A stretch of DNA of 64,000 nucleotides, taken from assembly GCA_002633005.1 (NCBI GenBank), contig NMRA01000049.1:1098011-1162010 (forward strand), in the 5' to 3' direction. The position numbers and the translations under genes are program-made. Position 1 is the stretch's first letter, and the number at the start of each line of letters is the position of its first letter. The notes beneath the pieces are model-generated. The model made no database searches. It was not told where the DNA came from and was given only the letters and a program-made list of their open reading frames with translations. The stretch is from Phoronis australis (lineage: Eukaryota > Animalia > Phoronida). Shown here one piece after another: positions 8,993 to 64,000 of the stretch.

Positions 8993-11237
8993 TTAAATAC
9001 CTTAATCCATTAGACAAGTGCATTCCGTACACCGTCATCAAAAAATCCTACCACCAGCACGTGAGATATGTTCAAGATGTGCGAGTTTCTTACAAACAAT
9101 TCCTAGCGACTATCTTCAGAAGAATTATTGTTATGAATGATATGAGAAAAAGTAGCGATATGTTATCGTTATAAAATCCCACGAAGTTTCACTACTCTGT
9201 AATTCACTGACCTTCACTAGTTCTGCAAACTTCAGTCCAGCCTTTCCATGGCAGTCTATCCCAATATATTTTTCAATACAAACGTTTTTATTTCTTTGGG
9301 CCGAATGTCTTGATATTGCTTTGTTTGGTATTTTTTCGATGATATTTATTTATTATCTTCTTCACCTTATTAGTGGTTGACAGTGCCGAGTTTACAGAGG
9401 CTCGAAAAAGGGGCAGTAAGTAGGCCTACACACTGCCGCCCTGCTAGGGAGGACGCCATCTGAAAGGGGAACTCTTAATATGAAAGGCCTCGTGTCATTA
9501 AACATGGAAAAGAATGACAACATATTCCATCATCCTATGACCCGCCAAAAAGTGACCTAGCTTCCTGAACATAAAGAGTTATACGATTTCACAAAAACAG
9601 GAAAGTCTGTAGAGGGAATCGATTCCATGAGCAATGCGTCTACTTTCGTTTAATGACTTATTCTTTTTTGATCGCCTATTTGTGCCTTTAAACCACAAAT
9701 TCTGTACCTCAGTCAAGAACAGTGCATTTATTGTCATCTTAATTGTGATTACATTTTTGGGACAACCTGCAGAAATGTCCGAATTACATCAATGTCTTCA
9801 GAGTTATTTTAGATAAGCAAAAATCGTCTAGGTGTTCTTTGCTATTCGTGGATCGGATTATAGAGATTTTCCTAACTACAGGCTGCAACTAAATTCACTG
9901 AAGCATCATCAATTCTTACAAGATTCGCTTCTAGTTGTTAAAAATCATCTACGAATCTGTCAATTTCCGTAGATACATAAACATGTAAATCAGAAACCAA
10001 CGAATTTGTTTATCAAAACGGAATGTTAGACGCAATTTCCGAAGGGTAACCATGGGAACATAGGAGATGGGGCGTCCCACGGAGTTTGGGGATTCCCCAA
10101 GAATTTTTCCCAATTTATTCGCGTTAACGTGTATTTTGTTCATTTCAGAGGTGCTTATCACGGTTTACGAGTTAAGCTTGAAATCTAAAAAGTCACTGAA
10201 ATCTTTATGATTGCAAGTACTTTGAGTACCCCACACGGTCATCAAAAATCACACCCGACAGCCTTTTCGACATGTGCAAATTCCTTTCAAACAACTCTTA
10301 GGAACGATCTTCAAAAGAAATACAGTGTGATACTATGGAAAATAGTAATATTATTTTATAGCTAACCATCGGAAATAGTCCTTTTATGTAATTCACAAAT
10401 AGTGATCTTCAAGTTCTTCAGACTTCCATCCTTTCGATGGCGATCAATCCTATTTTTTCACATTAATTTTTGGTTGTTTGGGTCGAATGTTTTGATAATG
10501 TTGGGCTGTGCAGGAATGTTTTGTGTTTTTCTCGGATGAATTCGGTATCTACTTCCCCTCGTGAATACTTGGCAGTGTCAGATTTACATGCCAGAGAGAC
10601 AAAGGGATAATTCCCCGAACCGCCCCAACGAGAGAGGACCTTGTCTGAACGGGGACACCTTGAGATGAAAGGCTAAATATCATTAAGCATAGAAAATAAT
10701 GACAGTTGTGTGACCTTTCTCAACATGAAAGGTTGTACGATTTCATAAAAAACGAGAAAATAGAACTAATTGATTCCAACATTGAGCCATTTCTCCGTAA
10801 GCGGCCCCTTAAGAATTTATCAATAAAAACACGAAAAGAGTGGCCACTTGAATGTCATCAATGCCCTCCTTTCAAGGGCTGGGCCCCTAAATATGGAAAG
10901 ATTCGTGGTTTCAAAAAACAAGAAATGTGCAGCAATTGATGCTATCTGTCAGGTCATCAATTTTGCTCAAGTGATGCAAAATTTCGAGAAAATCCCAACG
11001 AAAAATAGAGCAACAGATGTCTCCATTATCCCTTGCCAGAGAGGGGCCTCAGCAAAAATATATTATGCATTCGCAAAATTGTCTTCATCAATTTAAAAAT
11101 CCATTGAAAAAATGCGCTTTACAAATTTTCTCGGTTTTTTAGAAATACATGTATGGATGATTAAGTGGACGTTTTAAAGTGTGTTCAGACGCCCTATGCT
11201 GCAAATAAGGATCGCCCTGACAACAACGTCATGGCCA

Positions 11238-11725
11238 GGGTACATTCACAACAGCTATATGGTACATTCACAACAGCTGCATTGTACATTCACAACAGCT
11301 GTGTTATTCATAACAGCTATATGGTACATTCACAACAGCTGTGTGGTGCATTCACAACAGCTGTGTTATTCATAACAGCTATATGGTACATTCACAACAG
11401 CTGTGTGGTGCATTCACAACAGCTGTGTGGTACATTCACAACAGCTGTGTGGTACATTCACAACAGCTGTGTGGTACATTCACAACAGCTGTGTGGTACA
11501 TTCACAACAGCTGTGTGGTACATTCACAACAGCTGTGTGGTACATTCACAACAGCTGTGTGGTACATTCACAACAGCTGTGTGATTCATAACAGCTATAT
11601 GGTACATTCACAACAGCTATATGGTACATTCACAACAGCTATATGGTACATTCACAACAGCTATATGGTACAATCACAACAGCTATATGGTACATTCATA
11701 ACAGCTGTGTGGTACATTCACAACA
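11238..11725. repeat. 22-bp minisatellite (~22 units)
   Basis: ggtacattcacaacagct(g/a)t(g/a)t units with interspersed 20-bp variants; explains the repetitive ORFs at 11165-11748. Confidence 0.95.
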
Positions 11726-12289
11726 AAACAATGGCATCAGTAACATGACAGATTGCGAAATTTACAAAATTTCAAAGATATTGCCAATGAATTCGAAATA
11801 GATTCTCTTGTTTAAACGTGATGGGTCTTCACAAAATGAATTTTTCATTCAAAATATTATCTTATTTCTATTGCAAGTGTTTTGCATCAGGAATATTTAT
11901 GACAGAATTTAACAGAGTAGGTAACGATTATTCATATTCGTATGACCGAATTTTGTCTGATTGCCCATGATCACGATTTCTCAAAAATGTTGTCAAACGT
12001 TTTTAGGTTTTCATTTCGTTTTATGCAATTTCTGAGTTTTTGATTAATAGTAATAATAGTAGTACTTTGCTAGAACCTCATGCATAGTGGAACACGTTTT
12101 AGAGGGCTAGATCACAAAGCACAGTATCTGAAACTTCCATACGAATCCGATCAGTCATTTCTGCCATATGATGTTCGAGAAAAATTTAGAAAATTGTCTG
12201 GAGTTTTAATTTAGTATAGCGATAAAGTCGCTGAAGCCCTAAGAATCATTTAAAAACATTTAAATCAACTAGCATCGTTAAAGTGCATG

Positions 12290-15224: not shown

Positions 15225-17098
15225 CGTAACCTTAAAGTTTTCTGTTCAGATAATATACACGGACTGTTTTGCACTACTTATACAATTAAACGTTGTAATT
15301 TAGCGAATTTCATTGCTTGTGTTTCATGGTTAATCCCTCTGGTGCCAGCCTTGTTATTTCAGCTCAGGCCCCTCTGCAGTTTGGTTCTGACTGGTTGCTA
15401 ATTTGCCCACCAGCCAAGTGAAATTGAAGAGATAAGTGTGTTTTATTCCATGAATGTCACAAATTTGAGGGTGTTGAACCTTAATTTTGAATTGTTGATA
15501 GTCACTTATAGGGGTCTTGGATTTTGAAAATCAGTTTGCCGTTAGTTCAGTGGAGAAAATGTTTCTCAAAACGTGGGACCTCTCCGTAAGTCATTATTAC
15601 CTTTGAAGTAAGTGTTTTTTGGGCAATTCGAGTGTAGGATACGTTTTGAGATTTGTTCCTGTAAATGTGGTTGAGCAGGAAAACTTCTTGTTTGTGAATT
15701 GGCAATAGCTTGGTTGCTATGGTCTCAGGTCGAGTTGTTTTACAGTAACCGTCGTATTGACTCAATTCTGCCGCAAAATCGAATATAATCCGACTAAAAA
15801 TCCTAAAACGTAGATTGGCAGCTGTGATACTCAAACTCATTCGCGCAAGTGACTACAATTGACACTGCACTGCCGCGGTACTTGTGATGGCACAGGACTT
15901 TAATGTGACATCCAAGTCTTATGCAGACGGAACTTCATGACAGTCTTTGGAAATGAGGTATACATGTAAAAGAGGAAACAGTATGCAACGAAATTATTTT
16001 TTGGCATAACCTCTTTTGAGAATGGGCGACGTAGAATAGCGACAAAAATAAAATTGCATTTTAATGGCTTAGTTCCGCCTTTTTAGTAGACCATCCAACT
16101 AGTGCAACTTAGGACTAGTACGCGTTTGCACTTGGGCACCATCGGAATAGTGCACTTTCGTACTCTAGTGAGCTGCTCCCGATCAGCCTTATCTTCGTGT
16201 TGGCTATGAACTTTCCTGGATGGATAAAGACTTACAAGACGTTGTATTTTTGCTTTTCATCATGGACGCTTTGTGAACCATGAAAACTAAGGCAAACCAG
16301 GAAAATTCACGTTCGGCAGAGATTTTGTAAATGATTTTTCAAAATACCGAGGGAGAGAAAATAATGCAAATTTGTCACTGTGGTTTGCTTTCTAAAATAT
16401 CGCACGTGCACTTTATGCTAGACAAATCGCCACCCTTTCAAACCAACTCGTGTTAGTTCAAAAGAATCGCAATGTGAAACCGACCCTGTCGCTGTCGCAA
16501 CAAAATGGTCAGACTGTGTACGAAAACAGGTCAATGGGAAAACGTCAAAGGAAACCGATTATGTAGCCAGTCAGCCGTATTTTCAGAAAGAAGGCGGGCA
16601 TATTTTCCGAAACAGTCAAACATTTTATGTGTTTTTTAAACATATTAGTGAAATTTTAAAAAACACTTTCTTTTTAATGTATGTAATTGTATCTCACCGG
16701 TAAGAATTTAATATTCTTCCATACTTATTTCTCATTAGACAAACACAGTTTGTTAGAATTGTCCTTCATAATCTTACCTACCAGAAAAATCAACAAATAT
16801 CTCGATAAATGATAGTCATTTGAGTGAAAATATAATGTCTCGCCAAAATAAATCTTTATTTCAAAACAAATTACATACGGTTGATAAAACGAGTCCGTCC
16901 GATTTTCAAGACATGCTAACCGTACCGAAAATACGCATATGGTTGTACTTTTTTGAACTTTTTCCGAAAATACGCCAATAGACGTACTTGCTTTGAGGTG
17001 AGTCTATATTTTCAAAAATTCCAGGTTGTTGGCATTTGACGTGTACAATTGGTGACGTCGAACTATTCGTGACGTATTCACTTTACAAATTCTGTAAA

Positions 17099-19503
17099 AT
17101 GAAGCCGGGAATGGCTCACAGTGTCATTCGAAACTTTATAAAAGTTACAATATTATGGTTTATCCACTTTATTTTGCGAATTATGCTGAGAACCACCGAG
17201 AAAGTTTACTCTGTCACGAGGAAATCCCCGCGCATTGTGTCTTTTGGCAACAAAGACGCCTCTGGAACCACGGCAGTGAATGATAAGTGGTCAGGAGACA
17301 CATCTGACGCGTCCAAAACTGTTCACAAAGCAGAAGCTGACACTAAATTAATGCAATCTTATGTCAGGTGCGTAACAGACTTGTGTTGTCTTCTTGTGAT
17401 AGCATCACGCCGCATAAAGGCAAACACTGTCCGCAAATCAACGGACCTTGGTGGGCATGTCACCGAGTGTGAAGTCGAGTGGGAAGATGGAAACTCGACA
17501 AGCATCTACAAAGAAGACGCAAAATATGAAAGAAACACTTCGGAGGAAGTGTTACGCGATTCCACAGAGAACGACCAGAGGGTAAAACAGAATGTACATG
17601 AAAATACGGATCTAACAAATGAACAGAAAGATCCTACTGATGACCCTGGTGTTGAAGGGAGAGAAGTCATGCAATTGAGCGGTAGAAACAAACCAGGCGA
17701 CGTCGAAGATGTTCAACAGGAAGTCATTCAGCCGTCAAGTACCAATGGGTTTGCTGATGAGGCTTACAGTGAGGAAAAAGTCTTGAAACTCGAAAACAAA
17801 CCCGTTCAAAATGACCTGATTTTACTAAGACAACTGAGTCTACAGTTTCAGAGGAAGTGTGCCCCATTTCTACGAAGAAAGATGGGATGTGGAAGACTAA
17901 TGACCATCAAAAGACGGACCTTCCAAATTCAACAAAAGCGGCAATTGGTAACCCTGATGGTAGAGAAGGAGAAATCACGAAATTGGATGACAGAAACAAA
18001 CCGATTGACGTTCGAAAGGAAGTCATGCAACCGTCAGATGTCGCTTATTTCCCTGATGGTGCTAAGAAAGTCTTGAAATCTGAAAGTAATAGCGTTGAAG
18101 GTCACTACTTTGAAGACGCCACCAAGTCGACCGAGTCTAGAGTTTCTGAGGAAGTTTACCACATTTCCACAGACAAGGATGAATTGCTGAAGAAGAATGT
18201 CCATGGAAAGACTGAGCTGCCAGAGTTACTGGCAAGTCAAATCCCTATCATTGCACCCGAGGGAGAAAATTGCATGGAAATACGAAATATTGAGGAAATT
18301 CCTGAGGACGCCGAAGATTGTGATCTCCATGGGTTGCCTTACGGTGCAACTTTTTTCTCTATTGAAATAGCTGCTTCAGAAATCATCCGCCGTAGCTCTA
18401 CATGTATGATTGATACTGGAGAGAAAGAAGCCGGTAAACTGGAAGGCATAAACAAGCCAGGCTACGTTGAAGATGTTCGACAGGAAGTCATGCACTCGTC
18501 AAGTATTGTTGATTTCGCTGACAATGATGATAGTAAGGAGAAAGTCCTGAAATCTGAAAGTATATCCGTTGGAGGTCGCCACTTGGACGACATCACACTG
18601 ATAGATTTCAGTGATCCGACTGAGCCTACAATTTCCTCTGCGATTGGGGAAACTTTTACACAGGACTCACGACGATCCACATCTGAAACTCTGTGCAGCA
18701 CTATGAAATCAGGCAGCGTCGAAGGTAAAAGCCCAGAAGATGCAAATTTGCACAGCTTCGCTAAGTTGCCCCAAGATGCCATTTCGTCTCATAGTGTAAA
18801 TCTTTTAGAGTACACGTTAATAGATGAAACTGTTGAGAAGGACAAAATACAATTTCAGAGCAGTGGTCTGCCCAACAAGCGTGAAGACATGCCACTGGCA
18901 CTGGACGATGTTAAACCTTCTAGTGTCACCACCTGGCCTCACAGCCACATTTCGTTCGTGACGCTGCATTTTCCAACGAATATTGATATGTCCGTAATCA
19001 GTAATGATGAAATTAATACCACATACCTTCAAGCTAAGAACGAGCCAGGGGAGGTTGAGGATACTCGCCTAGAGGACCGCAGATCGTCTCCTTTTGCAAC
19101 GTTGCCTCAGTGTGATTTTTGTTTTGCTGGTGGGGATTATTCAATGGACACTGAATACAACGGTAAAAGAAAAACAAGACTGCAAATTAGCAACAAGCCA
19201 TACATAATTGATGGAATTTCTTCAGAAGACGACAAGACGTTTGTGGATGTGCCTCTCGATACCGTTTCTTCTGATTCAGAGGATACCCACAGAATTGTCG
19301 GTGATTTTACAGATAAATCAAATATTGTGAAACGCGAAGGACTTTTCAAGCGTTTGAAATCACGATTCAGAAGGAATCGTCACGTGGTCCAGGTCTGTGC
19401 TACTTCCTCTTTGCAGGCGCAAAGTTTCGCCTCACGGTGGCGGCATTTGATGTGTTGTAGTGCTTGTGAAGACGAGAACACCTATGCCAGATTACACGAC
19501 TGA
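17099..19503 (+). CDS. Intronless ~800-aa acidic, largely disordered repeat protein with one frameshift near 17815 (gene or young pseudogene)
   Basis: ORFs 17036-18076 and 17857-19503 overlap. Internal repeats (NKPG.VEDV.QEV..SS...EKVLK.ES) continue across the frame switch (PDFTKTTESTVSEEV matches EDATKSTESRVSEEV). N-terminal hydrophobic stretch; basic and Cys-rich C-terminus. Confidence 0.7.
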
Positions 19504-36404: not shown

Positions 36405-36566
36405 GTGACGGTATACGCTGTTACACGTGCAGCTCATACTCAGAAGACAGCGATTGCTTTAGGCGAACGACTTCCATCAAAGAGATAAAATGCCCTCAAG
36501 ACATGCCTTTCTGTACATACACGGAGAACAGAGAACCATGGATATTCCCAAATAGTAGTGTCAAAA
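36405..36566 (+). CDS. Ly6/uPAR three-finger protein, coding exon 2 (DGIRCYTCSSYSEDSDC...KCPQDMPFC...)
   Basis: Acceptor tttctctccag|, donor A|GTAAGT, phase 1-1, 162 nt; classic [IL]xCYxC LU-domain start. Confidence 0.88.
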
Positions 36567-38903: not shown

Positions 38904-39160
38904 GCCCGCTTGTTCAAGTAATTCTTGGGTGCGGTACAAGTCCGAGGAAACAGAACTGCTTATATGGAAAATACTGTACGTGGAAGACGTGTTACACTGA
39001 CTTTTGTAACTGTTACACACCCGACTGCACAAACAGTACCTGGCGAGCACGTGCTGAAGCTAGCAGACGATTATGTTTTTTAGCAGCCATAACTGCGATA
39101 GCATGTTCTACATTCCAAAGGATTTTTTTACAAAGATACAAAATTAATGTGATAAGATAA
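38904..39160 (+). CDS. Ly6/uPAR three-finger protein, last coding exon (...LGC...NC...YCTWKTCYTDFCN...)
   Basis: Acceptor ttctatattgcag|, phase 1; C-x-x-D-x-C-N terminal LU motif, hydrophobic tail, TAA at 39158-39160; spliced product 161 aa. Confidence 0.88.
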
Positions 39161-42751: not shown

Positions 42752-43439
42752 AATTCCAGACATTAATTTTACTTAGACACAGCCCTAGACCTACCGGAGC
42801 TAACAGTTTGGCCAGGACGAGATGAGTATGCACCTGAGCTATGAACCTGAATTTTTTTATCAAAATATTTCCTTACAAGATTAGAAAAGCGTAAACAGTG
42901 CTATCGAGTCGACCTAGTCAGACACTATAGTGCATGTGTTGTCTGTAATCTATGACCTATTTTGCTCCAGGAGTCCCACTAGTTGTGACCTACTTTTCAT
43001 TTGGCGAAATTTAGCAGACGACAGAATAAAAATATCGGTGTATCTTCACTGATTTTATTCGAAAGATCATAAAATCTATGGAATCGTGCAGATAATTCGA
43101 CTTTAAGGTACATACCCATCTTTACATGAACATATCGTATCAGTGGCCTTGTCATTTGTCAGGTGAAGGTGGCCCCAAGGCCGAGGGGTTCTTCGGATTT
43201 TCGCTGGCTCCTCGAGCACTTATTTTTTCATCGTCACCTTTACAAATTCCCATATCATGAACGTACGATTCACTGTTGAAAGGTATCGCCTCTTGTCTCT
43301 GTCGACGCGTTTTCAAATAGTACAAAAACACTAATTGATTCCACCAGGAACGTCGTTTAGCGACAGTATTGTTGTTTTATTTACCTATGAATATGCCACA
43401 GGAACGTTATCTTGACTAAACGAAAGTGGTAGTCACATT

Positions 43440-44075
43440 GATAATTGGGCAAGCTTATGCTGCAATTTATTGTCAATGTACAGTTTCTATGATGTTTGGG
43501 TAAACCAAGGAGCCGCATGTCAAGAGTCGTTTGAAAATATTTTGTCACAACGTGTTAAGGACTGTGCTTTACAAACGTGGCAGTCCGAAGTTGATGATTC
43601 CAATTCTAAGTTAAACTATTACAAAAATTTTAAGATTGTATTTCAACATGAATACTATTTAGAAATTGACAATCTTCCAATAGTGTTCGTGCAAAGTTTT
43701 ACTCGTTTTCGATGTGCAAACCACAGACTGGCCGTAGAAACTGATCGTCACGTAAGAGTGATATATCAAGACACAGTGTGTACATTATGCTCGAGGAATT
43801 GTGTCGAGGATGAATATCACTTTTTGTTAGTTTGTGACGTTTTTTTTTCCGAAATCATAGCTAAGTTTCTAAGTGAGAGCTTCTGGACAAGTCCCTCTTT
43901 TCATAGACTGTCATGACGGTAATCCAGATACCTTAGTTGTGAAATATGTACGCATCTAAAAAACGGAACAGCTTGTGTATTGCTGACTAGTGTGCATAGC
44001 ATTCCAATGATTTTGTTTGTTTGTTTGTTGTACTTTGGGCGGTTAGCCATGCGTACAAATAAGTAAAGGAAAGAA
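43440..44075 (+). mobile_element. 5'-truncated non-LTR retrotransposon 3' end (RTE-X-like ORF2 C-terminus)
   Basis: SKLNYYKNFK..EYYL..TRFRCANHRLAVETDRH..CTLC..VEDEYHFLLVC zinc-knuckle tail, followed by a short 3' UTR. Confidence 0.85.
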
Positions 44076-44269: not shown

Positions 44270-45513
44270 AGGTTTTATTTATCCTTTGGAAATTGCTACC
44301 AGGGCACTTGTTTGCACATATACCGAATAGTGGAAAATAGTGACTCATATTCTGTTTTCGTCTTGCAACTTTTACTAAACCAACATGATATTAACGGCCA
44401 TGTTACTCCACCTGTTTGTGAAATATAAATTGTTTTCACCACTAGATTAAGGGATCAAAACTAACTTAACATATCCAGTGAAAATTGACTGAAAGGGGAC
44501 AAAGCCGAATTTTAAAACAAATGGAAATTGATTTAAAAGGTGAATATTGACCAAAGAATCAGAAATAGACACCATGAACAAAATGGACATGATTGATCAA
44601 AATGGCCATAATGAGCCAAAACAGACATGATGAGCCAGAACAAACGTTGCTGAAATCAAGTTACCAACCAGATTTCAGTCTGCCAAAGATAACCCTTTCT
44701 TTGTCCAGTGTTTGCAAGATAAGTTCTCTGCTGAAGTTAATCGTACAGTGGCAGATCCAGACAATACTGGCTAACCACTTAGCTCTTGAATTTTTAATTA
44801 AAAGTCAGAAAGGTGTGAGTTGATCTTCCAGGCTTTATGATTTTTACCCGTTTGCAGTTCCTGTGCTTGTCGCTAGGCGACGTGTCGTGAAGTGGCTGAG
44901 GAAGTAATGCGTGTCTGGAGACTGAAGCTACTCGGGGATGGTAGGCACTGGGCATCAAACATCGAAAGAGAATGACAGAGGATGAAACCCCAGTAAAGAC
45001 TACCAATGATGCGGTATTATTTTTAACTCGTCAAATACAAACGTTAGTAATGAGGGTTAAAAAATATTTAATTAGTTTCACTTACCACTGTGATTAACAA
45101 ATATAGCGCTCATCCATTCCAGTGGGACTAATTGTTACTCTATTCACAGAAAGTTAATACCAGCATTTTTGATTTCGAATATATTACAAATCTATACACG
45201 GAGCAAAAAAAACTAAAAATGTTGAGGAGCTTTTGGTTATTCCTGCCCCTTTTCATATTGGTACAAACCAGTTTCTATTGACTACCCTTTGCATGTACCC
45301 TGTACCCCGTACATGTATACAAATTGCTATTCATTTCAGATGACATCTAAAAATATCTACCTAGTGGTAGACTATATTGCTAACCGTAAGCATGCCATCT
45401 ATCTTTAGTAGACACGCCATTACGGTTATTACTAAATTCAAAGCATGCTTAGTGTATTTTAACTCTCTTTGGCAATAAACTTTCGGAAATCTGTAAAAAG
45501 ACGTGTAGGCTTA

Positions 45514-45743
45514 TCACATCTCATCCAGGTCTATGTCTAGACCGATTGTGTTGATTTTGTCTTGGCATGATCCTCCTTCCGTTGAGCAATAGCTTTTGCG
45601 GGTCTTGCAACATTTCTCCTTCAAGTTAGGATGACTGCACTGTTCAGAAAGTTCGCCTAGTGTGAAGATGTTGGCACATGTGGGAGTGGTGAACAAGGCT
45701 TCTGGGTGAAAGAAGCTTGCTCCTCTTACGTCAGCACTGCAGG
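45514..45743 (-). CDS. Secreted Cys-module precursor, exon 8 (module 3: CSADVRG...TCANIF...QCSHPNLKEKCCKTRKSYC, then tail)
   Basis: Acceptor acatttcag|, phase 1, open to TGA TAA. Confidence 0.8.
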
Positions 45744-46651
45744 CTGAAATGTTAAGCAGATAGCAACCATGATAATACTATAGTATGTACAAACACTAAT
45801 GCAGTTCTACTAGTATGCTACTAATAATACGTGCCATAATGACAATGATGAATATTTTGCTGCACTACCATTGGAAAATGTCTCCGCTATCTTTCTGAAC
45901 ACCTGGTTCTGTAGAGGCGAGGGGAAATTGCTCCTCCGTCTACTGGCAAACCAGACGTCGTAACTTGGATTTTGAACTCAGATTGTGAATTCCAGTTTCG
46001 AGATTAAGTTGAGTTTTATGAAGACAACACTGACATTACAGTCAAAAAGCAAACAACTTTTAAAAATACTTGTACTGAAAAGTCATAACCACAACCAGGA
46101 CAGCTTAACACAACAAAACAATATTCAATATATATATTGAAAATTCTATTTTTACACCTGGAATTAATGAATAGGTGTTAATTTACTTTAGGACAGTAAT
46201 TCTAAATTAGTACTAAACTGCAAGGGATAGTGCTAGGGCTTATCAATTTTCAGAAGTGTGAATATTTTAAACCCCGCAATCTCAAAAATGGTCACGAACT
46301 TTGGATGCCAAGGCATATCGGCAGAAACAGGACAGGAAGAAAAAAAGCATGTCTGTGTATTATCACGTTACAGTCTCTCTTTTCTTCCCAAACAGTCATT
46401 TTCCTGTAAACTAAAAATTCCGGGCTACCAGATCATGGAAACTAATAATACGATTAAGTAGATCCAGGGAGATCCATGTTAACTTGTGAATAAACACAGC
46501 TTGAAAATCATATTTGCTTTTGATTTATATTCGGTACCCTTTTTAATAAGAGCACGCCCTCCTTTATGCAATATTGTCAATGACTAGAAATCTCAGAACT
46601 TTTGCAATCAAAAGGACGAAGTTTGGATGGAATTACTAGTGCATTACTTAC

Positions 46652-46786
46652 GACAATATTGTGTGCGCGAGACACAGCAGTGGTATATTACTTGGTAGTT
46701 GTTGCAGTACCGTGTTGATTCCGACAACAGTTGGTCGCACGTTTTACCCCCAAGAAACTGGATTCCTGGAGTGTTCCTCAGGCAGG
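46652..46786 (-). CDS. Secreted Cys-module precursor, exon 7 (module 2: CLRNTPGIQFLGGKTCDQLLSESTRYCNNYQVIYHCCVSRTQYC)
   Basis: Acceptor gtatttcag|, donor C|GTAAGT, symmetric phase 1-1, 135 nt, one complete six-Cys module. Confidence 0.88.
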
Positions 46787-47185
46787 CTGAAATACATGAG
46801 CAGTAGCCGTCTTGTACATGTCAGGGCTTATTCGCGTTGAAATTTGGAAAATCTGGCGTGCGTTCCGTAGACGCGAGAATCTCGCGAAAACGCGACAACA
46901 CTCAAGAATTCGCAAGATATGGTCGTGTACTACAAGCAAAGCTCGTGATGTCGTTAGATTCCTTAGATATTCTACACTGGCGGAGCTACAGTAAGGAGAC
47001 TACAGAGAAATGACAATGGGGCATTGACTTCTGCGATTCATCACATTTACAATTTTTTAAGCTATGGATAGATTTACAATTAATCATATAATTAGAGTGT
47101 TACTCAGAGATATTGTTTGTGCTTTATTTTAAATAAAAAATTCATAAAATGGATCTTAATACAAGTTAGTTCAGTCGAATCTTAA

Positions 47186-48791
47186 AGGAAAATGCCACCC
47201 AAAAAACAGCCTATTTTGTATCAATTTAGATCGAGTAGTTCCACTCGATAACAGCAAGTTCGACGGCAGGTGGAGGTGTTGAAATTAACCAATGACGTAA
47301 TCAGCCGTTCACAACACGCTTACTGGTGTCAACTTATCGCTTTATACATCATTTACACCAATAAATAATCAAATTTCGATGCAAAACCCTTTCAAATACA
47401 TCGAGTTCTTAAACAAAAGTACTTGTTGCTTTATTTCACTGTTACCGATTTATAGGTATTTGAACGCACTGAAGCCTACAGAGTTCGATCAAAGAGTGTA
47501 GATTCCTAGGTTCGGAAAGTGAAGCCAATTTATCATGGTCAATCCCAGGAGTTTGTGTCTGTTTGATGATGAATTCGAATCATTCTTCCGTAAAATACAG
47601 ACATGGAAGATAGCTGTGTGTTGTACTTTTAGACTTGCGATTTTTTCAGTTCTAAACACACAAAACGCTCCCAGCCAGTGCCTCGGAACCCGATCAGGCC
47701 CGTCGCGGCCGCCGGGAGTACACATCACAAACATAAACCAGCTTAAGTTGGAAACTAAACCTCCAGTCACGAAAAGACTATACTAGTGAGCCAAAGAAAT
47801 ATTGTGCACGTAATTATTTTGTTGAATTATCCACGAAACTGCAGCTCTACTTACTTGTCGGATGCCGCGAAGTCAACTGAAGTCGCCCTTTCACCGAACC
47901 GTCAGGGCAAAAGTTGTACAGTAACAATGATGTGAATAATGTATTTGTGTATCTAAATAAAGATTCCTCTAACATGTGACCATAGCATATAAAATCGAGT
48001 TATTGTTTCACAACAGCTTTCTGTCAGCAAACCCTGAATTAGCATGCTCTCACACGGATTCGGCGCCCGGTCAATTACCTTTATTGCATTTGAAGCCGGT
48101 AACGCAGTGGTTTATTCATTGCTGGCTTCTCAAAGCACTTGCACTCACGAATACTCCAAAGGCATTACAAATTGTATCTAATCAGACAGACTGTTTTGGC
48201 TTTATATAAGCATTGGTTAGGGTGAGAATAATTCATTTTGAAACAGAACGCAGAATAGCAAACGCCAACATGCAAGTCGCAATCCCGACTTAGACAAGAG
48301 CTCATCCGACAAAGACTTCGCAGGTGGATCGTTAAGTTTCACAGGCTATCAGTTCGAGGCGCCGTGAACATGCACAAGCAACGGAACGTATGGATACTTT
48401 GAAGTCGCACTTCGTCAAACTCACTGTCGACGACTGCCGGCCACAGACACGGAGATGTTTCACGGCCTCATACTTGCTATTAACAGCGTACTTTTCATTC
48501 TTCACTACCGCAAGCCACTTCCTAAGCATTTGGACTCTCGAGGAAGTCGAAAAAACGATACACCCGCTTTCCTCGCAACTTCATAATTCGGACAAGCGGG
48601 AACGATGAACCGCAACATAGCGGCATTCACTCTGTAAATGAACCACTGACGTCGCTGCGTCCTTTCTCACCTTCCTCACAGGTTTACGCGACACCTCTCG
48701 AGCGGCAAGGTAAGGTAGACCGTATACGAGGCGATGTGGATATAGTCCGATTAAGACGGTAAAAAATACTAATTTAATCGGGTGGCATTCT
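47186..48791 (-). mobile_element. Kolobok-type element with THAP relic, monomer 1 of tandem dimer
   Basis: TTAA + aggaaaatgccaccc left end, gggtggcattct right end; minus strand from 48626 gives IVPACPN..GVSFFRLP / LRKWL..LRVCG. Confidence 0.85.
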
Positions 48792-48792
48792 A

Positions 48793-50471
48793 AGGAACAT
48801 GCCACCCAAAAAACAACCTAATTTGTATCAATTTAGATCGAGTAGTTCTACTCCATAACAACACGTACGGTTGCGTTACCTGACACCTGACGGCAGACGG
48901 AGGTGATGAAATTATCCAATGACGTCATCGGTTTCACACGCAGTCTGTTGAGCAGTTCACAACACTGATTACTGGTGCCTGCATATCACTTGAAATCATC
49001 GTTTAACACCAATAAATCATCAAACTGCGATGTAAAACCCTTAAAAATACACCGAGTTCTTATAAAAACGTGTTGATTTATTTCGCTCTTACGGATTTAT
49101 TGGTATTTGGACACACCGTAGCCTACAAAGTTCGGCAGGCCAATAAGGTCCGTAGAAGGAGTTTGGGGTCTGTTCGGAGATAATTTCGCGAAGTATTTTC
49201 CGTGAGATACACACAGGAGAACCTAGATCTGCGTTGTTTAGACTTGTGATTTTTTGAGTTCTAAACACAAAACGCTGGTTATCCTGGCCAGTGGCTCGGA
49301 GCCCGATCAGGCCCGTCGCGGCCGGCCGGATTGACTCCGAGTGGTTATCCCGGCCAGTGGCTCGGAAACTGATCAGACGTCACGAACATAAACCAGCCAA
49401 GTTCTGTGGAAACTAAAGTTCCAGTCAAGATAATACTATACTAGTGAGCCAAAGTAATGTGCACGTGATTATGTTGGTGAATTAGCCACAAATCTACTTA
49501 CTGGTCTGGGGCAACGAATTCAGGTTCCGCTTTGGCCACAGCACCGTCAGGGCACATGCTGTACTTTGACAATCATTATTTGAGTAATGTAAATGTAAAT
49601 AAAGATTCCCCTAACACCTGGCCGTAGAATGAAAATCGAGTTGTTTCACAACAGTTTCTGCCAGCAAACACTAAATTAGGATGAGCTCACACGGCCTCGG
49701 TGTCCCATCAATTAGTTTATTATACCTAAAGCCGGTAACGCCGTGATTTATTCATTGCTGGCTTCTCAAACCATTTGCACTCACGAACACTCCAAAGGCA
49801 TTACAAATTGCATCTAATGATACTTTGTTTCAGTTTTACATAAGTATTGGTTAGGGTAAGAATAATTCATTTTGAAACAGAACGCTCAGTAATAAACGCC
49901 AACATGGCAACTCGCAATCCCGACTTAGGACGAGCTAGAGTTCATCAGTCCCGACTTCGCAGGTGGATCGTTAAGTTTTACAGGCTATCAATTCGAACAG
50001 GAATACAGTGATGAAGAAATACTAGAGAGGCGCCGTGAACAAGCTCAGGCAACGGAACGTATGGATTTCATTTTGGTAACCCGGCATTCGTCAGGCGCTG
50101 TGGACGTCTGCAGGCCACAGACAGTACGGAGATGTTTCACGGCCTCATATTTGCTATTTACATCGTACATTTCATTCTTCACTACCATGAGCCACTTCCT
50201 AAGCATTTCGGACTCTCAAGGAAGTTAAAAAAACGATATACCCGTTTTCCTCGCAGCTGCTTAGTTCGGACAAGCGGGAACGATGCACTGCAACATAGCG
50301 GCATTCACCGCTCTGCATATGAACCACTTACGTCGCTAGCGTCATTTCTCACCTTCCTCACAGGTTAACGCGACACCTCTTGGCAAGGTAAGGTCAACCG
50401 TATGCGAGGCGAAGTGTATATAGACCGATTAAGACGGCAAAAAAACTAATTAAATCGGTTGGCATTCTCCT
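48793..50471 (-). mobile_element. Kolobok-type element with THAP relic, monomer 2 of tandem dimer
   Basis: aggaacatgccaccc...ggttggcattctcct + TTAA (50472-50475); colinear diverged copy of monomer 1. Confidence 0.85.
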
Positions 50472-51173
50472 TTAAGCTCAGAGAACTGATAACATCTGTA
50501 GCCTTCATGTCGGCGAATGTCTTGCAGACATCTACGAGAAATCATTATGGCGATTTGTAGCAAGATCACAAAAACAGCGGATTTGATTATTTTCATAGCT
50601 TTGGTGAAAGTTGATTTCTTCCCAAAAATAATCCCCAAAAGTGAGTTTCTCAACCTAAATCAGAATGTCTCTTTGATTGTTAGATCAAAGTTTTACATGG
50701 AGCGTGGCTTAGTGCGCATGACATTTACAGAAAGGAAAGTTTAAGTATGCACGTATTATGAAAACGCAGGCGCTCATCAAGAAAATTTGATTTCTTTGTC
50801 TGACTAAAGGAAATTTCTTGTGAAATTGTTTGGACTGTTGATAACAATCACAACACAATTTGTGCAGTTGGTGGAGATTAAAGGAAACCTGAACTTCGCG
50901 GGGTTCCAGTCTCTCGAACCAGCCCTGACATCGAGGCTGATATCAGAAAATCATTTTTCTCGCCGATTATGCCCCATTGAGAGATCAACATTCAATGAAC
51001 AAGCACCTGTTTACACAATGTCATCATAATTTAGTTGAAATTTAACTTAAATTAATAAAACCCGACGATTACTCTTTTGTGGGTGTCCAAACAAAGTTAA
51101 ACTTGTCGATGTGAACTAATAAATTATAGTGAATTTGATTTCTCTGTTGAACGCATCAAATTAAACTACTCAC

Positions 51174-51247
51174 TCTCGCAGTACATTCGCCTTGTGCCGC
51201 AGCAATGCTGTTGAAGGACGGGGTGACGACAGCCTCTAGCTCCCACT
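51174..51247 (-). CDS. Secreted Cys-module precursor, exon 6 (VGARGCRHPVLQQHCCGTRRMYCE)
   Basis: Acceptor gtttgacag|, donor A|GTGAGT, phase 2-1; same C-x8-CC-x6-C spacing as exons 7 and 8. Confidence 0.85.
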
Positions 51248-51589
51248 CTGTCAAACACTTGTTTGCACGTCATACCACTCACTCGAACGTTTCGAGTGTC
51301 GGAGCAATCTAAACCGAAAACAAATGTTTTGTCTCTCTCATTTCATTTAACCTCATAGTTCGACCAGTTTTGAACTCCATGAGGTGGACACAATTTGCCG
51401 AATGATTCGAATTTTGCGTTACTTTGGAATAACCCCACATGTGCATTTAGTTAAAAAGGGTAGCATTCACCCTACTTCATGGTCAACGTGGATTTAAAAG
51501 TATTTTTGATGTATTAAAAATGATTATCTGAAGACCACTGCCCAGAAGTTTGAGGATGTCGGATACATTTATGATCCTTGTATGTGGAG

Positions 51590-51800
51590 GAGGTTTTATA
51601 AAATTCCTATTTAAGAGTAAACGATACAAAAAATGCCAGTTTCAATACAAAGTGATGCATAAGATACTTCCTACAAACGCTTGGTTATTTATAACTTCTA
51701 ATGTTGATTCTGGATCTTGTATTTTCTGTACACTTATTTTGGCTCGACATTCAGAGCCTGTTATTAGCAAACGTCCGAACACCATTTGGAAAAAGACAAT
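51590..51800 (+). mobile_element. L1/Tx1-clade LINE zinc-finger (zf-RVT) relic
   Basis: FQYKVMHKILPTNAWLF...SCIFC followed by frameshifted HLFW. Confidence 0.75.
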
Positions 51801-52118
51801 TATACTTTTTGAAACGCCGTTTAAAAAAACACTTATTTTCAAATTTTCTTCAATTTAAGATTAAAGTTTTCCATCTAACGTTTTCACACTAGGGTAGAAA
51901 TATGTTTCAACCGCAATAGAAAATAGGTCAAATCTAAGAGATAAGATGGAAACATTACAGACTAAGTACTTAACTAATGACACAAGAATTAATGTGAAGT
52001 CAATGATTCCATGACGTTGACACAATGTGGTTTAGGTTAACCTGGCGAACCAGCTTGCCCTTACGAAGCGTTCACGTATTCTGAGTAAATTATCCTCTCC
52101 AGGATGCAGTATAATAAC

Positions 52119-52176
52119 CTCACGAAAATGTTCCACGAGTATGCTACATTATTCTTTTGAGGGTGCTGGCGAAAAT
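52119..52176 (-). CDS. Secreted Cys-module precursor, exon 5 (FRQHPQKNNVAYSWNIFV)
   Basis: Acceptor gtttgacag|, donor AG|GTTATT, phase 1-2 bridges exons 4 and 6; F..HP...NIF aligns with module 3. Confidence 0.65.
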
Positions 52177-52265
52177 CTGTCAAACTATTCCGCAAAATCG
52201 AGCGTTGATTGGGTTAAAGTGTTCACAAGGACCTGGCCCAGGATAAAAGGTGCTGGGTAGCTTAC

Positions 52266-52307
52266 TTTCTGGTTGGCCTTTCAAATCGTTATTTCGGCAC
52301 ACAGCGG
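52266..52307 (-). CDS. Secreted Cys-module precursor, exon 4 (AVCRNNDLKGQPE)
   Basis: Acceptor tttcaag| (59-nt intron), donor A|GTAAGC, phase 1-1; C...DLKG aligns with C..DVRG of module 3. Confidence 0.65.
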
Positions 52308-52366
52308 CTTGAAATTACGTCGTGATCCCCCTCTCCTTCGAAAAACCGGTTATCCAAAGTTCTTAC

Positions 52367-52498
52367 CCGGGCCCGTCCTGTGAAGAATATCTCGGACCTT
52401 TCGTGATCTTGACTCTAGAGGATCAGGAACTGTGTCGTCAGAGGAAAGCTCGTGAGGTGGCGCTGGTGGTGACTCGGCAGGAATCGTCACGGTGATAT
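52367..52498 (-). CDS. Secreted Cys-module precursor, exon 3 (Pro/acidic propeptide ending RSRKVR-DILHRTGP)
   Basis: Acceptor gtttcag|, donor G|GTAAGA, phase 1-1, 132 nt open; R-x-x-R furin-type site. Confidence 0.78.
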
Positions 52499-52696
52499 CT
52501 GAAACGTTTTTTTTTTTAAATTTTCAATGCTGCTCTCGCAAATGTATTTAAGCCAAAAGTGTTTAATTAACTTAATGAACTTTTCATGAAGTGTAGATGA
52601 CGACGCATTTTCGTACGTTCGTTTGGCGCAATCACATGAGTTCTACAAAAATGCTATCTGAAAATAAATCAAAACATCTTCAAGTTGTCCACTTAC

Positions 52697-52754
52697 TTGG
52701 TATCAAGTCATCCCGTTTCAACTTTTCAATCACAAACTCATCATCTTCATCAAT
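52697..52754 (-). CDS. Secreted Cys-module precursor, exon 2 (IDEDDEFVIEKLKRDDLIP)
   Basis: Acceptor gtctttcag|, donor A|GTAAGT, phase 0-1. Confidence 0.8.
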
Positions 52755-53299
52755 CTGAAAGACGAAGAATTACATTAACGTAATCCATTCAGTAAGACTA
52801 CAAAATATTTCCAACGACATCACGTTTTCTGATCATTTGATAAATATGTTAATTGTTTATAAATATTGATAGTTGCGAAAATGAAGAGTTGTTTTTGTCG
52901 AAAACGTGACTTGATAGAATTGATTTTATCAAGCATCAAAATTTTTACAATTCTCAATTAGATTTTGTCATTGCAGGTAACTTTTTTAAAACGGTAACAA
53001 ACCCGCCTTCCAGCACAAGTAACATTTTTTTATTTAGATCGCTGACCGTGGTGAAATGTTTTTCAAATTGTTCTTTGATAAAATTTTAGATGATTTTAGG
53101 ACTTCAAAAGAGCTGATAGTTTATCGCTTGAGATAAAGCCCTACAGGTTGGACATGTCACGGAATGTCTTTTGATGCGAGAGAATGATCTAAACAAATTG
53201 AGACCGATTTTGTAATGAAACGTGGTACGCATCATGAGCTCGCTTCTTGGACAGAATGCAGGTTTGATAACCGCTTCAATTCTAAAATTTCAATCCTAC

Positions 53300-53359
53300 C
53301 GCAGGAAGACCGTATGCCTCGATGACGAATGCAGTTAGAAGTACTGCTATCACCTTCAT
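53300..53359 (-). CDS. Secreted Cys-module precursor, exon 1 (signal peptide MKVIAVLLTAFVIEAYGLPA)
   Basis: agtATG, K plus hydrophobic core plus A-Y-G cleavage motif, donor GCG|GTAGGA phase 0. Confidence 0.8.
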
Positions 53360-54139
53360 ACTGTATGTCGAGCTATTTGGAGAATGGAAACAACGGGAGA
53401 CGTATGCAGCTTTTATTTGTAATTCAAAGAGGAAGATGTTTCTTATCGAAAAAAGCAGCGCTAAAATAACGGAAACCTGTTGTGAGTGATTCTGGAACGT
53501 GTTTATAAAACGGAGTGTTTCTAATGTTTTGTCCTTTCCGTTCCACTAAACTACTTTTTAATTTCCCTGTTCCTTGTCCCCGTACAGTTCACAAGTTTAG
53601 AGCAACATCAGTCACATGCACAGATTGAATATTTTTCTAACCATGTCACGAGACCATAGTAAAATTTATCAGAAAAGGAAGGTACGGCGAAAGCAAAACA
53701 GTGGTATCAATAACACGACCAAACTTTGTTTAATATGTATGTTCAAGATGAAATCTCAAAAGGCTGCTACAGTTTTTTAAATTGTCATTTCGTATTCGTT
53801 TTATAAGACTTTTGATTTTTTTTTCACGAAAATAGTCAAAGTCCAATTTTTGACAACCCCTCACACAAAAGAAGGACATTACAGAAACAAAAACATTTGC
53901 AGAACAGCGTATTGAGCATAGCATCTGAAAGTTTCGTATGAATCTGGTCCTTTGAAGATGTTCGGATGGTAGCCAACTTTGGAAATTTATCAAGAGATTG
54001 GGATTGATACGGTTCCGCTTCCTTATTAATGAATAAAGGTTTAGCCATGCCAACGTTAGCACATACAAATAGATTAAAAAAGCTAGGTCAATAAGTAAGA
54101 AGTAACGAGTATAGAAACTGCATTTTGCAATCTTTCGGA

Positions 54140-61787: not shown

Positions 61788-62287
61788 TGACAATTGTCTT
61801 ACATAACCTGCATATATATGACAATTGTCTTACATAACCTGCATATATATGACAATTGTCTTACACAACCTGCATATATATGACAATTGTCTTACACAAC
61901 CTGCATATAAATGACAATTGTCTTACATAACCTGCATATATATGACAATTGTCTTACATAACCTGCATATATATGACAATTGTCTCACACAACCTGCATA
62001 TATATGACAATTGTCTTACACAACCTGCATATAAATGACAATTGTCTTACATAACTTGCATATATATGACAATTGTCTTACATAACCTGCATATATATGA
62101 CAATTGTCTTACATAACCTGCATATATATGACAATTGTCTTACATAACCTGCATATATATGACAATTGTCTTACATAACCTGCATATATATGACAATTGT
62201 CTTACATAACCTGCATATATATGACAATTGTCTTACACAACCTGCATATAAATGACAATTGTCTTACATAACCTGCATATATATGAC
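61788..62287. repeat. 31-bp minisatellite (~16 units) in malic enzyme intron 1
   Basis: tgacaattgtcttaca(t/c)aacctgcatata(t/a)a tandem array. Confidence 0.95.
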
Positions 62288-63762: not shown

Positions 63763-64000
63763 GGTATGGCCTTCACCCTAAAGGAGAGACAGATCATGGG
63801 AATCCATGGTCTGATTCCACCCACAGTGCTCACGCAAGACCAACAGATGGTGCGAGTGATGAGAAATCTCGAGCGTATTGGCGACGATCTGAATCGATAC
63901 ATATACATGAATCAGCTGTACGACCGCAATGAGAAGTTGTTCTTCCGTGTTCTAATTGACCACGTGGAAAAAATGATGCCTATTGTGTATACTCCCACTG
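63763..64000 (+). CDS. ME3: Malic enzyme coding exon 2 (runs off the window)
   Basis: Acceptor ttccttctgtag|; GMAFTLKERQIMGIHGLIPP...DRNEKLFFRVL..VEKMMPIVYTPT is the malic enzyme N-terminal signature including the catalytic Tyr motif PIVYTPT. Confidence 0.97.

Follow-up and report, generated by a model that had tools for sequence, protein, structure and literature searches.

A strongly expressed Phoronis australis gene for a predicted secreted precursor with three cysteine modules outside ShKT and PLAC

Does the minus strand between 45514 and 53372 of a 64,000-nucleotide stretch of the Phoronis australis genome (contig NMRA01000049.1, positions 1,098,011 to 1,162,010; hereafter the window) carry an expressed gene, and what kind of protein would it encode? 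A first-pass annotation, made from the letters and their open reading frames, had proposed an eight-exon gene for a secreted, furin-processed precursor with three copies of a cysteine module related to PLAC and ShK. A gene is indeed present and is strongly expressed, and its modules show a third cysteine arrangement, most likely built on the scaffold that ShK and PLAC share.

Gene structure and the encoded precursor

The RNA data comprised a contig run (X1) and three raw-read RNA sequencing runs of 2026 (X2-X4), all under the same species label, and a joint was listed only if it had at least three reads, two start places and a share of 1 in 100. In the region 51100-53500, 1280 of 1324 X2 reads matched at 99% identity or more. 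The eight exons proposed first agree with the sequence, being all of the GT-AG type and 789 nt in total, but the reads give six minus-strand exons, with 148-501 reads per run in X2-X4 across each of the five junctions (Table 1). The corrected coding sequence is 750 nt long and encodes 249 residues, 19 of them Cys, in place of the 262 residues predicted. First mates lie on the plus strand, as expected for a minus-strand transcript, and read ends cluster at 53370/53372 in all three raw runs. Exon 2 is seldom skipped (joint 52498/53300 in 0, 2 and 4 reads). Expression, by a crude estimate, is roughly 138-234 reads per kb per million reads in the three RNA runs, with a depth of 221-432 on the module 1 exon.

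Four of the seven junctions proposed earlier were thus recovered, whereas 52367/52307, 52266/52176 and 52119/51247 were not listed. Neither the former exons 4 and 5, which are intronic, nor the acceptor at 51247 take part in any listed joint; the depth over 52072-52314 is 1-8.5, the same as in the remaining intron (0-7). In the true intron of 1058 nt, stretches of 30-150 nt that run from AG to GT without a stop number 83, so that a pair of false exons is as expected by chance. The frame that is open upstream of 51247 carries two more cysteines, and module 1, which lacked its second Cys in the earlier model, receives both Cys 1 and Cys 2 from the real exon 4. Intron 4 contains two tandem copies of ~1.6 kb (74% alike) of a dispersed repeat, as found by self-BLAST, in which coding capacity was sought and none was found. 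Reads fall on both strands of this repeat and are mostly 90-95% alike; related copies elsewhere are transcribed from both strands.

The N-terminus of the product is hydrophobic (8-residue hydropathy of 2.1-3.05 over the first 14 residues) and is likely a signal peptide, the cleavage site of which was assigned by eye. Residues 18-75 include 14 Asp/Glu and nine Pro. Furin recognises basic residues at P1, P4 and P6. The RKVR sequence at the end of this segment conforms to R-x-x-R and not to the strict R-x-[KR]-R, and together with Arg70 it fits the P1/P4/P6 rule and is likely a cleavage site. The signal-peptide-like N-terminus, the acidic and Pro-rich propeptide and the RKVR site of the first-pass annotation are all supported.

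The cysteine modules and their relatives

Three six-cysteine modules follow, one per exon, with the pattern C-x12-20-C-x10-12-C-x8-CC-x-[TS]-R-x-x-Y-C, and the three C-x8-CC-x-[TS]-R-x-x-Y-C ends described earlier are present. A pattern fitted to modules 1 and 2 gives two matches in the window, whereas 100 shuffles give an expectation of 0.00. The exons of modules 1 and 2 each have 135 nt and phase 1-1, and module 3 opens in phase 1, which points to exon duplication; self-BLAST of the 64 kb window revealed no paralogue. The linkers between the modules have two residues and one residue, with no basic pair. Cys233, in the acidic tail, is the odd 19th cysteine. By eye, the tail near Cys233 has a Cys-x-Asp resembling a module start, as if from a truncated fourth module.

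PLAC domains end in CC-x-[TS]-C, an ending that was measured here on the sequences P0007 and P0008. It occurs in none of the three modules, which have Arg at that position, and the ShKT C-terminal spacing C-x3-C-x2-C is likewise absent from all three. Counted from Cys4, the closing cysteines lie at 0/+4/+7 in ShKT, at 0/+1/+4 in the PLAC type and at 0/+1/+8 in the Phoronis modules. Of the two family checks called for earlier, Pfam PLAC (PF08686) gave a match to module 1 (15.9 bits, E 0.022) under the gathering score of 26.4 and none to modules 2 and 3, and Pfam ShK (PF01549) gave no match to any of the three at E up to 10. Among nine aligned modules of the same long spacing, PLAC matched one, below the cut-off, and ShK matched none. 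As judged by defining spacing and hidden Markov models (HMMs), the modules are outside both ShKT and PLAC.

A profile of the three modules, searched against 1.84 billion protein representatives, produced eight hits, four of which have the long spacing, namely XP_013391653.1, XP_013386516.1 and the ENA fragments P0009 and P0010. Hits P0005 (a fish mucin-5AC-like protein) and P0011 contain no six-Cys module and were rejected as spurious. XP_013391653.1 of the brachiopod Lingula anatina (240 residues, E 2.8e-22), which has a near-copy in XP_013394575.1, consists of a signal peptide, an acidic propeptide, a KR site and four modules with linkers of 1-2 residues (GD, DN, E). Among the Lingula modules, the third and fourth are the best match to modules 2 and 3 (z of 6.9 and 5.0 against cysteine-preserving shuffles), and module 1 scores about equally on the first three; as sequence comparison goes, homology to the Lingula protein is clear and one-to-one orthology of the modules is not. 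The Phoronis precursor belongs to a Lingula-type family, definable by tandem C-x11-20-C-x10-12-C-x8-CC-x-[TS]-x4-C modules behind a signal peptide and a propeptide.

A pattern scan of metagenomes gave 44 loci, four of which, on three contigs from the same animal as P0010, contain full modules; the other 40 have none and were taken as chance. Word-indexed protein searches added little: with the three modules, none of 124 candidates scored; with the Lingula proteins, just these themselves were recovered (2 of 580); and with nine modules, 3 of 963 candidates scored, all ENA fragments. The spacing is found in at least Lingula and further animals, forming a small family so far, and the term 'lineage-specific' applied to it earlier does not hold in a narrow sense, given the same spacing and layout in L. 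anatina and in animal contigs. No described family with this cysteine spacing was found, as had been anticipated.

In 13 long-spaced modules, the residue at +4 from Cys4 is Arg in ten, Phe in two and Lys in one, while [TS] at +3 is invariant in these and in 13 of 13 short-spaced modules. P0007 and P0008 are arrays of six to eight six-Cys modules ending in CC-x-[TS]-C, under the Pfam cut-off (P0007 matches PLAC weakly, with 19.1 bits), which suggests that they are part of a wider unannotated family. A nine-row profile of long-spaced modules aligned with a P0008 module at a probability of 91.8 (E 7.2e-7, 41% identity), the conserved Arg standing opposite the last Cys of P0008.

Metagenome locus L001 (109-2242) contains four long-spaced modules with Asn/Pro-rich linkers, and L043 contributes a fifth, so that the array has at least five; several of the modules on L001, L005 and L043 are nearly identical. 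Upstream of the L001 modules, two exon-like stretches match ADAMTS_CR_2 (E 2.8e-4, 21.7 bits, cut-off 27.3). These modules are likely spliced, as a tail, onto an ADAMTS-like (M12B) protease.

AlphaFold2 models of modules 2 and 1, resting on 3- and 7-row alignments, have a mean predicted local distance difference test (pLDDT) score of 82.2 and 87.4, respectively, and consist of three to four short helices. Full structural alignment against 48,161 chains gave five and six rows with Z of 2.0-3.1, of which four and five (nine of 11 in total) are ShK-fold entries. The best row for both models is Acan1 (6dri; root-mean-square deviation (rmsd) of 2.4 over 34-35 residues), the other ShK-fold rows being 6ckf, 7l2g, 2mcr, 2k72 and the C-terminus of 2dda, and the single non-ShK row in both is a Fanconi-complex chain. 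As the Z scores are low, it is the enrichment for one small family that constitutes the fold evidence. PLAC structures are absent from the listings of every fold search made, which excludes nothing. Feature neighbours in an atlas included ShK clusters at 0.85-0.88, to be taken as leads only. A structure search of the atlas with the Lingula protein, for which the model was poor, gave template modelling scores of at most 0.30, and sequence searches of the PDB returned noise (BLIP, fractalkine) or nothing. The relation to PLAC and ShK that had been suggested is supported by the weak PLAC match, the ShK-fold rows and the Arg at the PLAC-type last-Cys position.

In ShK, the disulfides are C1-C6, C2-C4 and C3-C5 (available text of PMC6409789), and in the jellyfish peptide NnK-1 they are 1-38, 11-31 and 20-35, the last three cysteines being Cys31, Cys35 and Cys38 (available text of PMC11122761). 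If C2-C4 is kept in the Phoronis modules, the remaining bonds would be either C1-C5/C3-C6, which resembles PLAC with the last Cys shifted by one turn, or C1-C6/C3-C5, which resembles ShK with the fifth Cys shifted backwards.

A proposed secreted binding protein and its alternatives

The reading that we favour, with a probability of about 0.5, is that the precursor gives rise to one extracellular binding protein of three modules with a predicted ShK fold, which would act as binding tags and adhere to a component of mucus, tube, cuticle or matrix. The precursor would be secreted via its signal peptide and its acidic propeptide removed by a furin-type convertase after RKVR, releasing a single chain of ~174 residues with closely packed modules, the first residue of which would be Asp76. 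Each module would derive, as a variant, from the PLAC-type module at the tail of invertebrate ADAMTS-like (M12B) proteases; Arg would have replaced the last Cys, the role of which would have passed to a Cys four residues downstream. Multiplied by duplication of the phase 1-1 exon and separated from the protease, the modules would tether, cross-link or compete for the ligand of such protease tails, and Cys233 might link the protein by a disulfide to the matrix or to another copy of itself. The lack of cleavage sites between modules and of a Lys-Tyr dyad, together with purifying selection, makes a binding protein preferable to a toxin precursor; a conserved extracellular binding role is also favoured by the silent-dominated variation, the brachiopod counterpart and the probable place of the module on a protease tail in another animal.

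With regard to variation, six of seven nucleotide differences between X1 and the window in the exons of modules 1 and 2 are silent (binomial p 0.001-0.005), which favours purifying selection on the modules. In the propeptide, three of four listed substitutions change the residue and two 3-nt deletions occur, 3-nt deletion alleles of exon 3 being present in X1 and X4. For the last exon, at least 15 of the 19 X1 differences in 44726-45743 were listed.

Several points weigh against the binding role. A signal peptide, an acidic propeptide and a convertase site are likewise typical of toxins and defence peptides, and module 1 carries a net positive charge. The link to proteases consists of one sub-threshold Pfam match on an unspliced genomic contig with no catalytic domain there, and the function of PLAC has not been studied biochemically, according to the available part of PMC8667168. 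Collinearity with Lingula is partial, Lingula module 3 scoring higher on module 1. The fold assignment depends on the shallow alignments given above and on Z scores of just 2.0-3.1, where values below 8 may reflect a mere common arrangement; Foldseek with the models, a check proposed earlier, gave nothing significant. A role in shell matrix has no mention or motif in the available text of PMC4595640 and PMC4453069, which is weak evidence as such texts need not list sequences. Expression of ShKT-bearing astacins mostly in barrier epithelia (PMC9848320, in the part available) is compatible with either kind of surface role.

A bolder form of the argument, offered tentatively, is that the modules are a third permutation linking ShKT and PLAC, with a disulfide present in neither, and make up an undescribed secreted bioactive family freed from the protease tail, in which the Arg-x-x-Tyr surface of the last helix could serve for binding or channel block.

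A defensive or predatory toxin, with the mature chain or its modules blocking potassium channels and Arg-x-x-Tyr replacing the Lys-Tyr dyad, appears unlikely. The precursor layout and the high expression would suit it, and the nearest structures are active on Kv (voltage-gated potassium) channels or belong to toxin families (Acan1, Nak1, a Brugia ShK-like peptide, OspTx2a, the MMP23 domain and the pseudechetoxin C-terminus). The Lys-Tyr pair is absent from the C3-C4 loop of all three modules; that dyad is regarded as essential in ShK, although activity without it is also noted and the MMP23 domain blocks channels without a dyad (PMC6409789, available text). In addition, the replacing Tyr is present in just six of 13 long-spaced modules, there are no release sites between the modules and no paralogue in the window, and the polymorphism is mostly silent. 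Hence, the toxin or defence role put forward in the first-pass annotation is left without positive evidence. A relative moreover occurs in Lingula, a filter feeder for which no venom is known.

Somewhat less probable is an innate-immune or antimicrobial mucus protein comparable to aurelin, a ShK-fold antimicrobial (PMC6409789, available text). Module 1, with its eight Lys/Arg and two Asp/Glu, would agree with this, and cationic modules could be masked by the acidic propeptide. However, the charge of modules 2 and 3, as of the Lingula modules, is close to neutral, the tail is acidic, and the similarly high expression in three runs bears no sign of induction under the conditions of those runs. 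A neurosecretory or pheromone-like signalling molecule is improbable: convertase sites and conservation with Lingula recall the neuronal ShK-like2 of Nematostella, a conserved neuropeptide with a ShKT motif (bioRxiv 10.1101/2020.05.28.121442, in part), but in relatives the module is probably part of a protease tail, and none of five 9-residue motifs taken from the Phoronis protein and from its counterpart in Lingula occurs in the accessible part of the supplement to a neuropeptide survey of nemerteans, brachiopods and phoronids (PMC8557429). That the module is unrelated to ShK and PLAC, and merely a similar small helical disulfide domain, would agree with the Pfam results for the nine modules and with Z below 3.2, and is very improbable in view of three partly independent lines (the PLAC HMM, the language-model neighbours, as leads only, and the ShK folds) and of [TS] at +3 in 26 of 26 modules.

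Feature map and comparison with known systems

The features of the gene and of the remainder of the window are given in Table 1.

Table 1. Positions of features in the window; module positions are residues of the 249-residue precursor
Feature	Position	Strand	Remarks
Exon 1	53300..53372	-	start 53370-53372; 5' untranslated region of 11-13 nt; ATG 53359; codons 1-20, signal-peptide-like
Junction	53300/52754	-	364, 270, 223 reads in X2-X4
Exon 2	52697..52754	-	acidic propeptide; KR, residues 33-34 (52718-52713)
Junction	52697/52498	-	501, 360, 302 reads in X2-X4
Exon 3	52367..52498	-	Pro-rich/acidic propeptide and start of mature chain; from junctions
RKVR	52392..52403	-	residues 72-75, preceded by Arg70; predicted furin-type convertase site
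Junction	52367/51308	-	271, 175, 148 reads in X2-X4, and X1 contig
Former exons 4 and 5	52119..52307	-	rejected; intronic
Exon 4	51174..51308	-	135 nt, phase 1-1; module 1
Junction	51174/46786	-	244, 221, 160 reads in X2-X4
Repeat pair in intron 4	47185..50468		two tandem copies
Exon 5	46652..46786	-	135 nt, phase 1-1; module 2
Junction	46652/45743	-	426, 309, 200 reads in X2-X4
Exon 6, first part	45586..45743	-	module 3; opens in phase 1
Exon 6, end	45514..45585	-	acidic 23-residue tail; Cys233; stop codon
Module-start-like Cys-x-Asp	45565-45517	-	by eye
3' untranslated region	45056..45513	-	main ends 45088 and 45056; longer form to 44726
Module 1	Cys85-Cys127		spacing 12-11-8-0-6; 8 Lys/Arg, 2 Asp/Glu, net basic
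Module 2	Cys130-Cys173		spacing 14-10-8-0-6
Module 3	Cys175-Cys226		spacing 20-12-8-0-6
Ly6/uPAR (three-finger) gene, two exons	36405-36560 and ~38905-39150	+	first exon, Pfam UPAR_LY6 (E 6.9e-4); second, C-terminal C-x-x-D-x-C-N motif and hydrophobic tail like that of a glycosylphosphatidylinositol anchor
Malic enzyme exon	63763-63999	+	Pfam malic, above cut-off; window end
Two overlapping long acidic reading frames	16997-19503	+	359 and 562 residues, stop to stop; internal repeats; no Pfam match
Intron or frameshift in acidic pair	near 17815-18076	+	
Likely long interspersed nuclear element (LINE) retrotransposon remnant	43416-43916	+	weak zf-RVT (E 0.006)
Minisatellite arrays	11165-11748 and 61788-62287		the latter with a 62-bp unit

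In the full-text literature searched, which included few subscription papers, the Lingula accessions are not named and nothing points to this spacing. Peptides with the ShK fold serve as drug scaffolds, and no function is established for PLAC. A relocated cysteine in an apparently intact fold illustrates how disulfide frameworks may be rewired, and as the module escapes Pfam, such proteins are overlooked in surveys of venom, mucus and matrix. An abundant stand-alone protein made of modules only would offer a handy route to the binding partners of such protease-tail modules.

With PLAC, a domain of six cysteines (PMC4133867, available text), the Phoronis modules share the cysteine number, the C-x8-CC core (in all three) extended as C-x8-CC-x-[TS], and an Asp near Cys1. 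They differ from it in the last Cys, which lies at +8 and not at +4 from Cys4, in the Arg at +4 and in a longer first loop, and, both here and in Lingula, in forming a stand-alone precursor without an enzyme; PLAC is a C-terminal appendage of ADAMTS-like proteases or of lacunin, a position that the long-spaced modules of L001 likely share. With ShKT they have in common a length of ~40 residues, six cysteines and the predicted short-helix fold (rmsd of 2.2-2.9 over 32-35 residues), and they are set apart from it by the lack of a Pfam ShK match, of the Lys-Tyr dyad and of cleavage sites between modules. The jellyfish multi-ShK precursor of NnK-1 similarly carries tandem copies after a signal peptide and propeptide, but basic residues flank each of its peptides, whereas the Phoronis linkers are non-basic (PMC11122761, available text).

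The proteins of Lingula LOC106159797 and LOC106162021 (XP_013391653.1 and XP_013394575.1) and of LOC106156002 (XP_013386516.1) are annotated as uncharacterised. They differ from the Phoronis protein in having four modules instead of three, KR in place of RKVR, a shorter propeptide and no odd mature Cys, and Tyr precedes the last Cys in just one of the four modules. They resemble it in layout, with tandem C-x11-18-C-x11-12-C-x8-CC-x6-C modules, the last of which likewise has the longer first loop.

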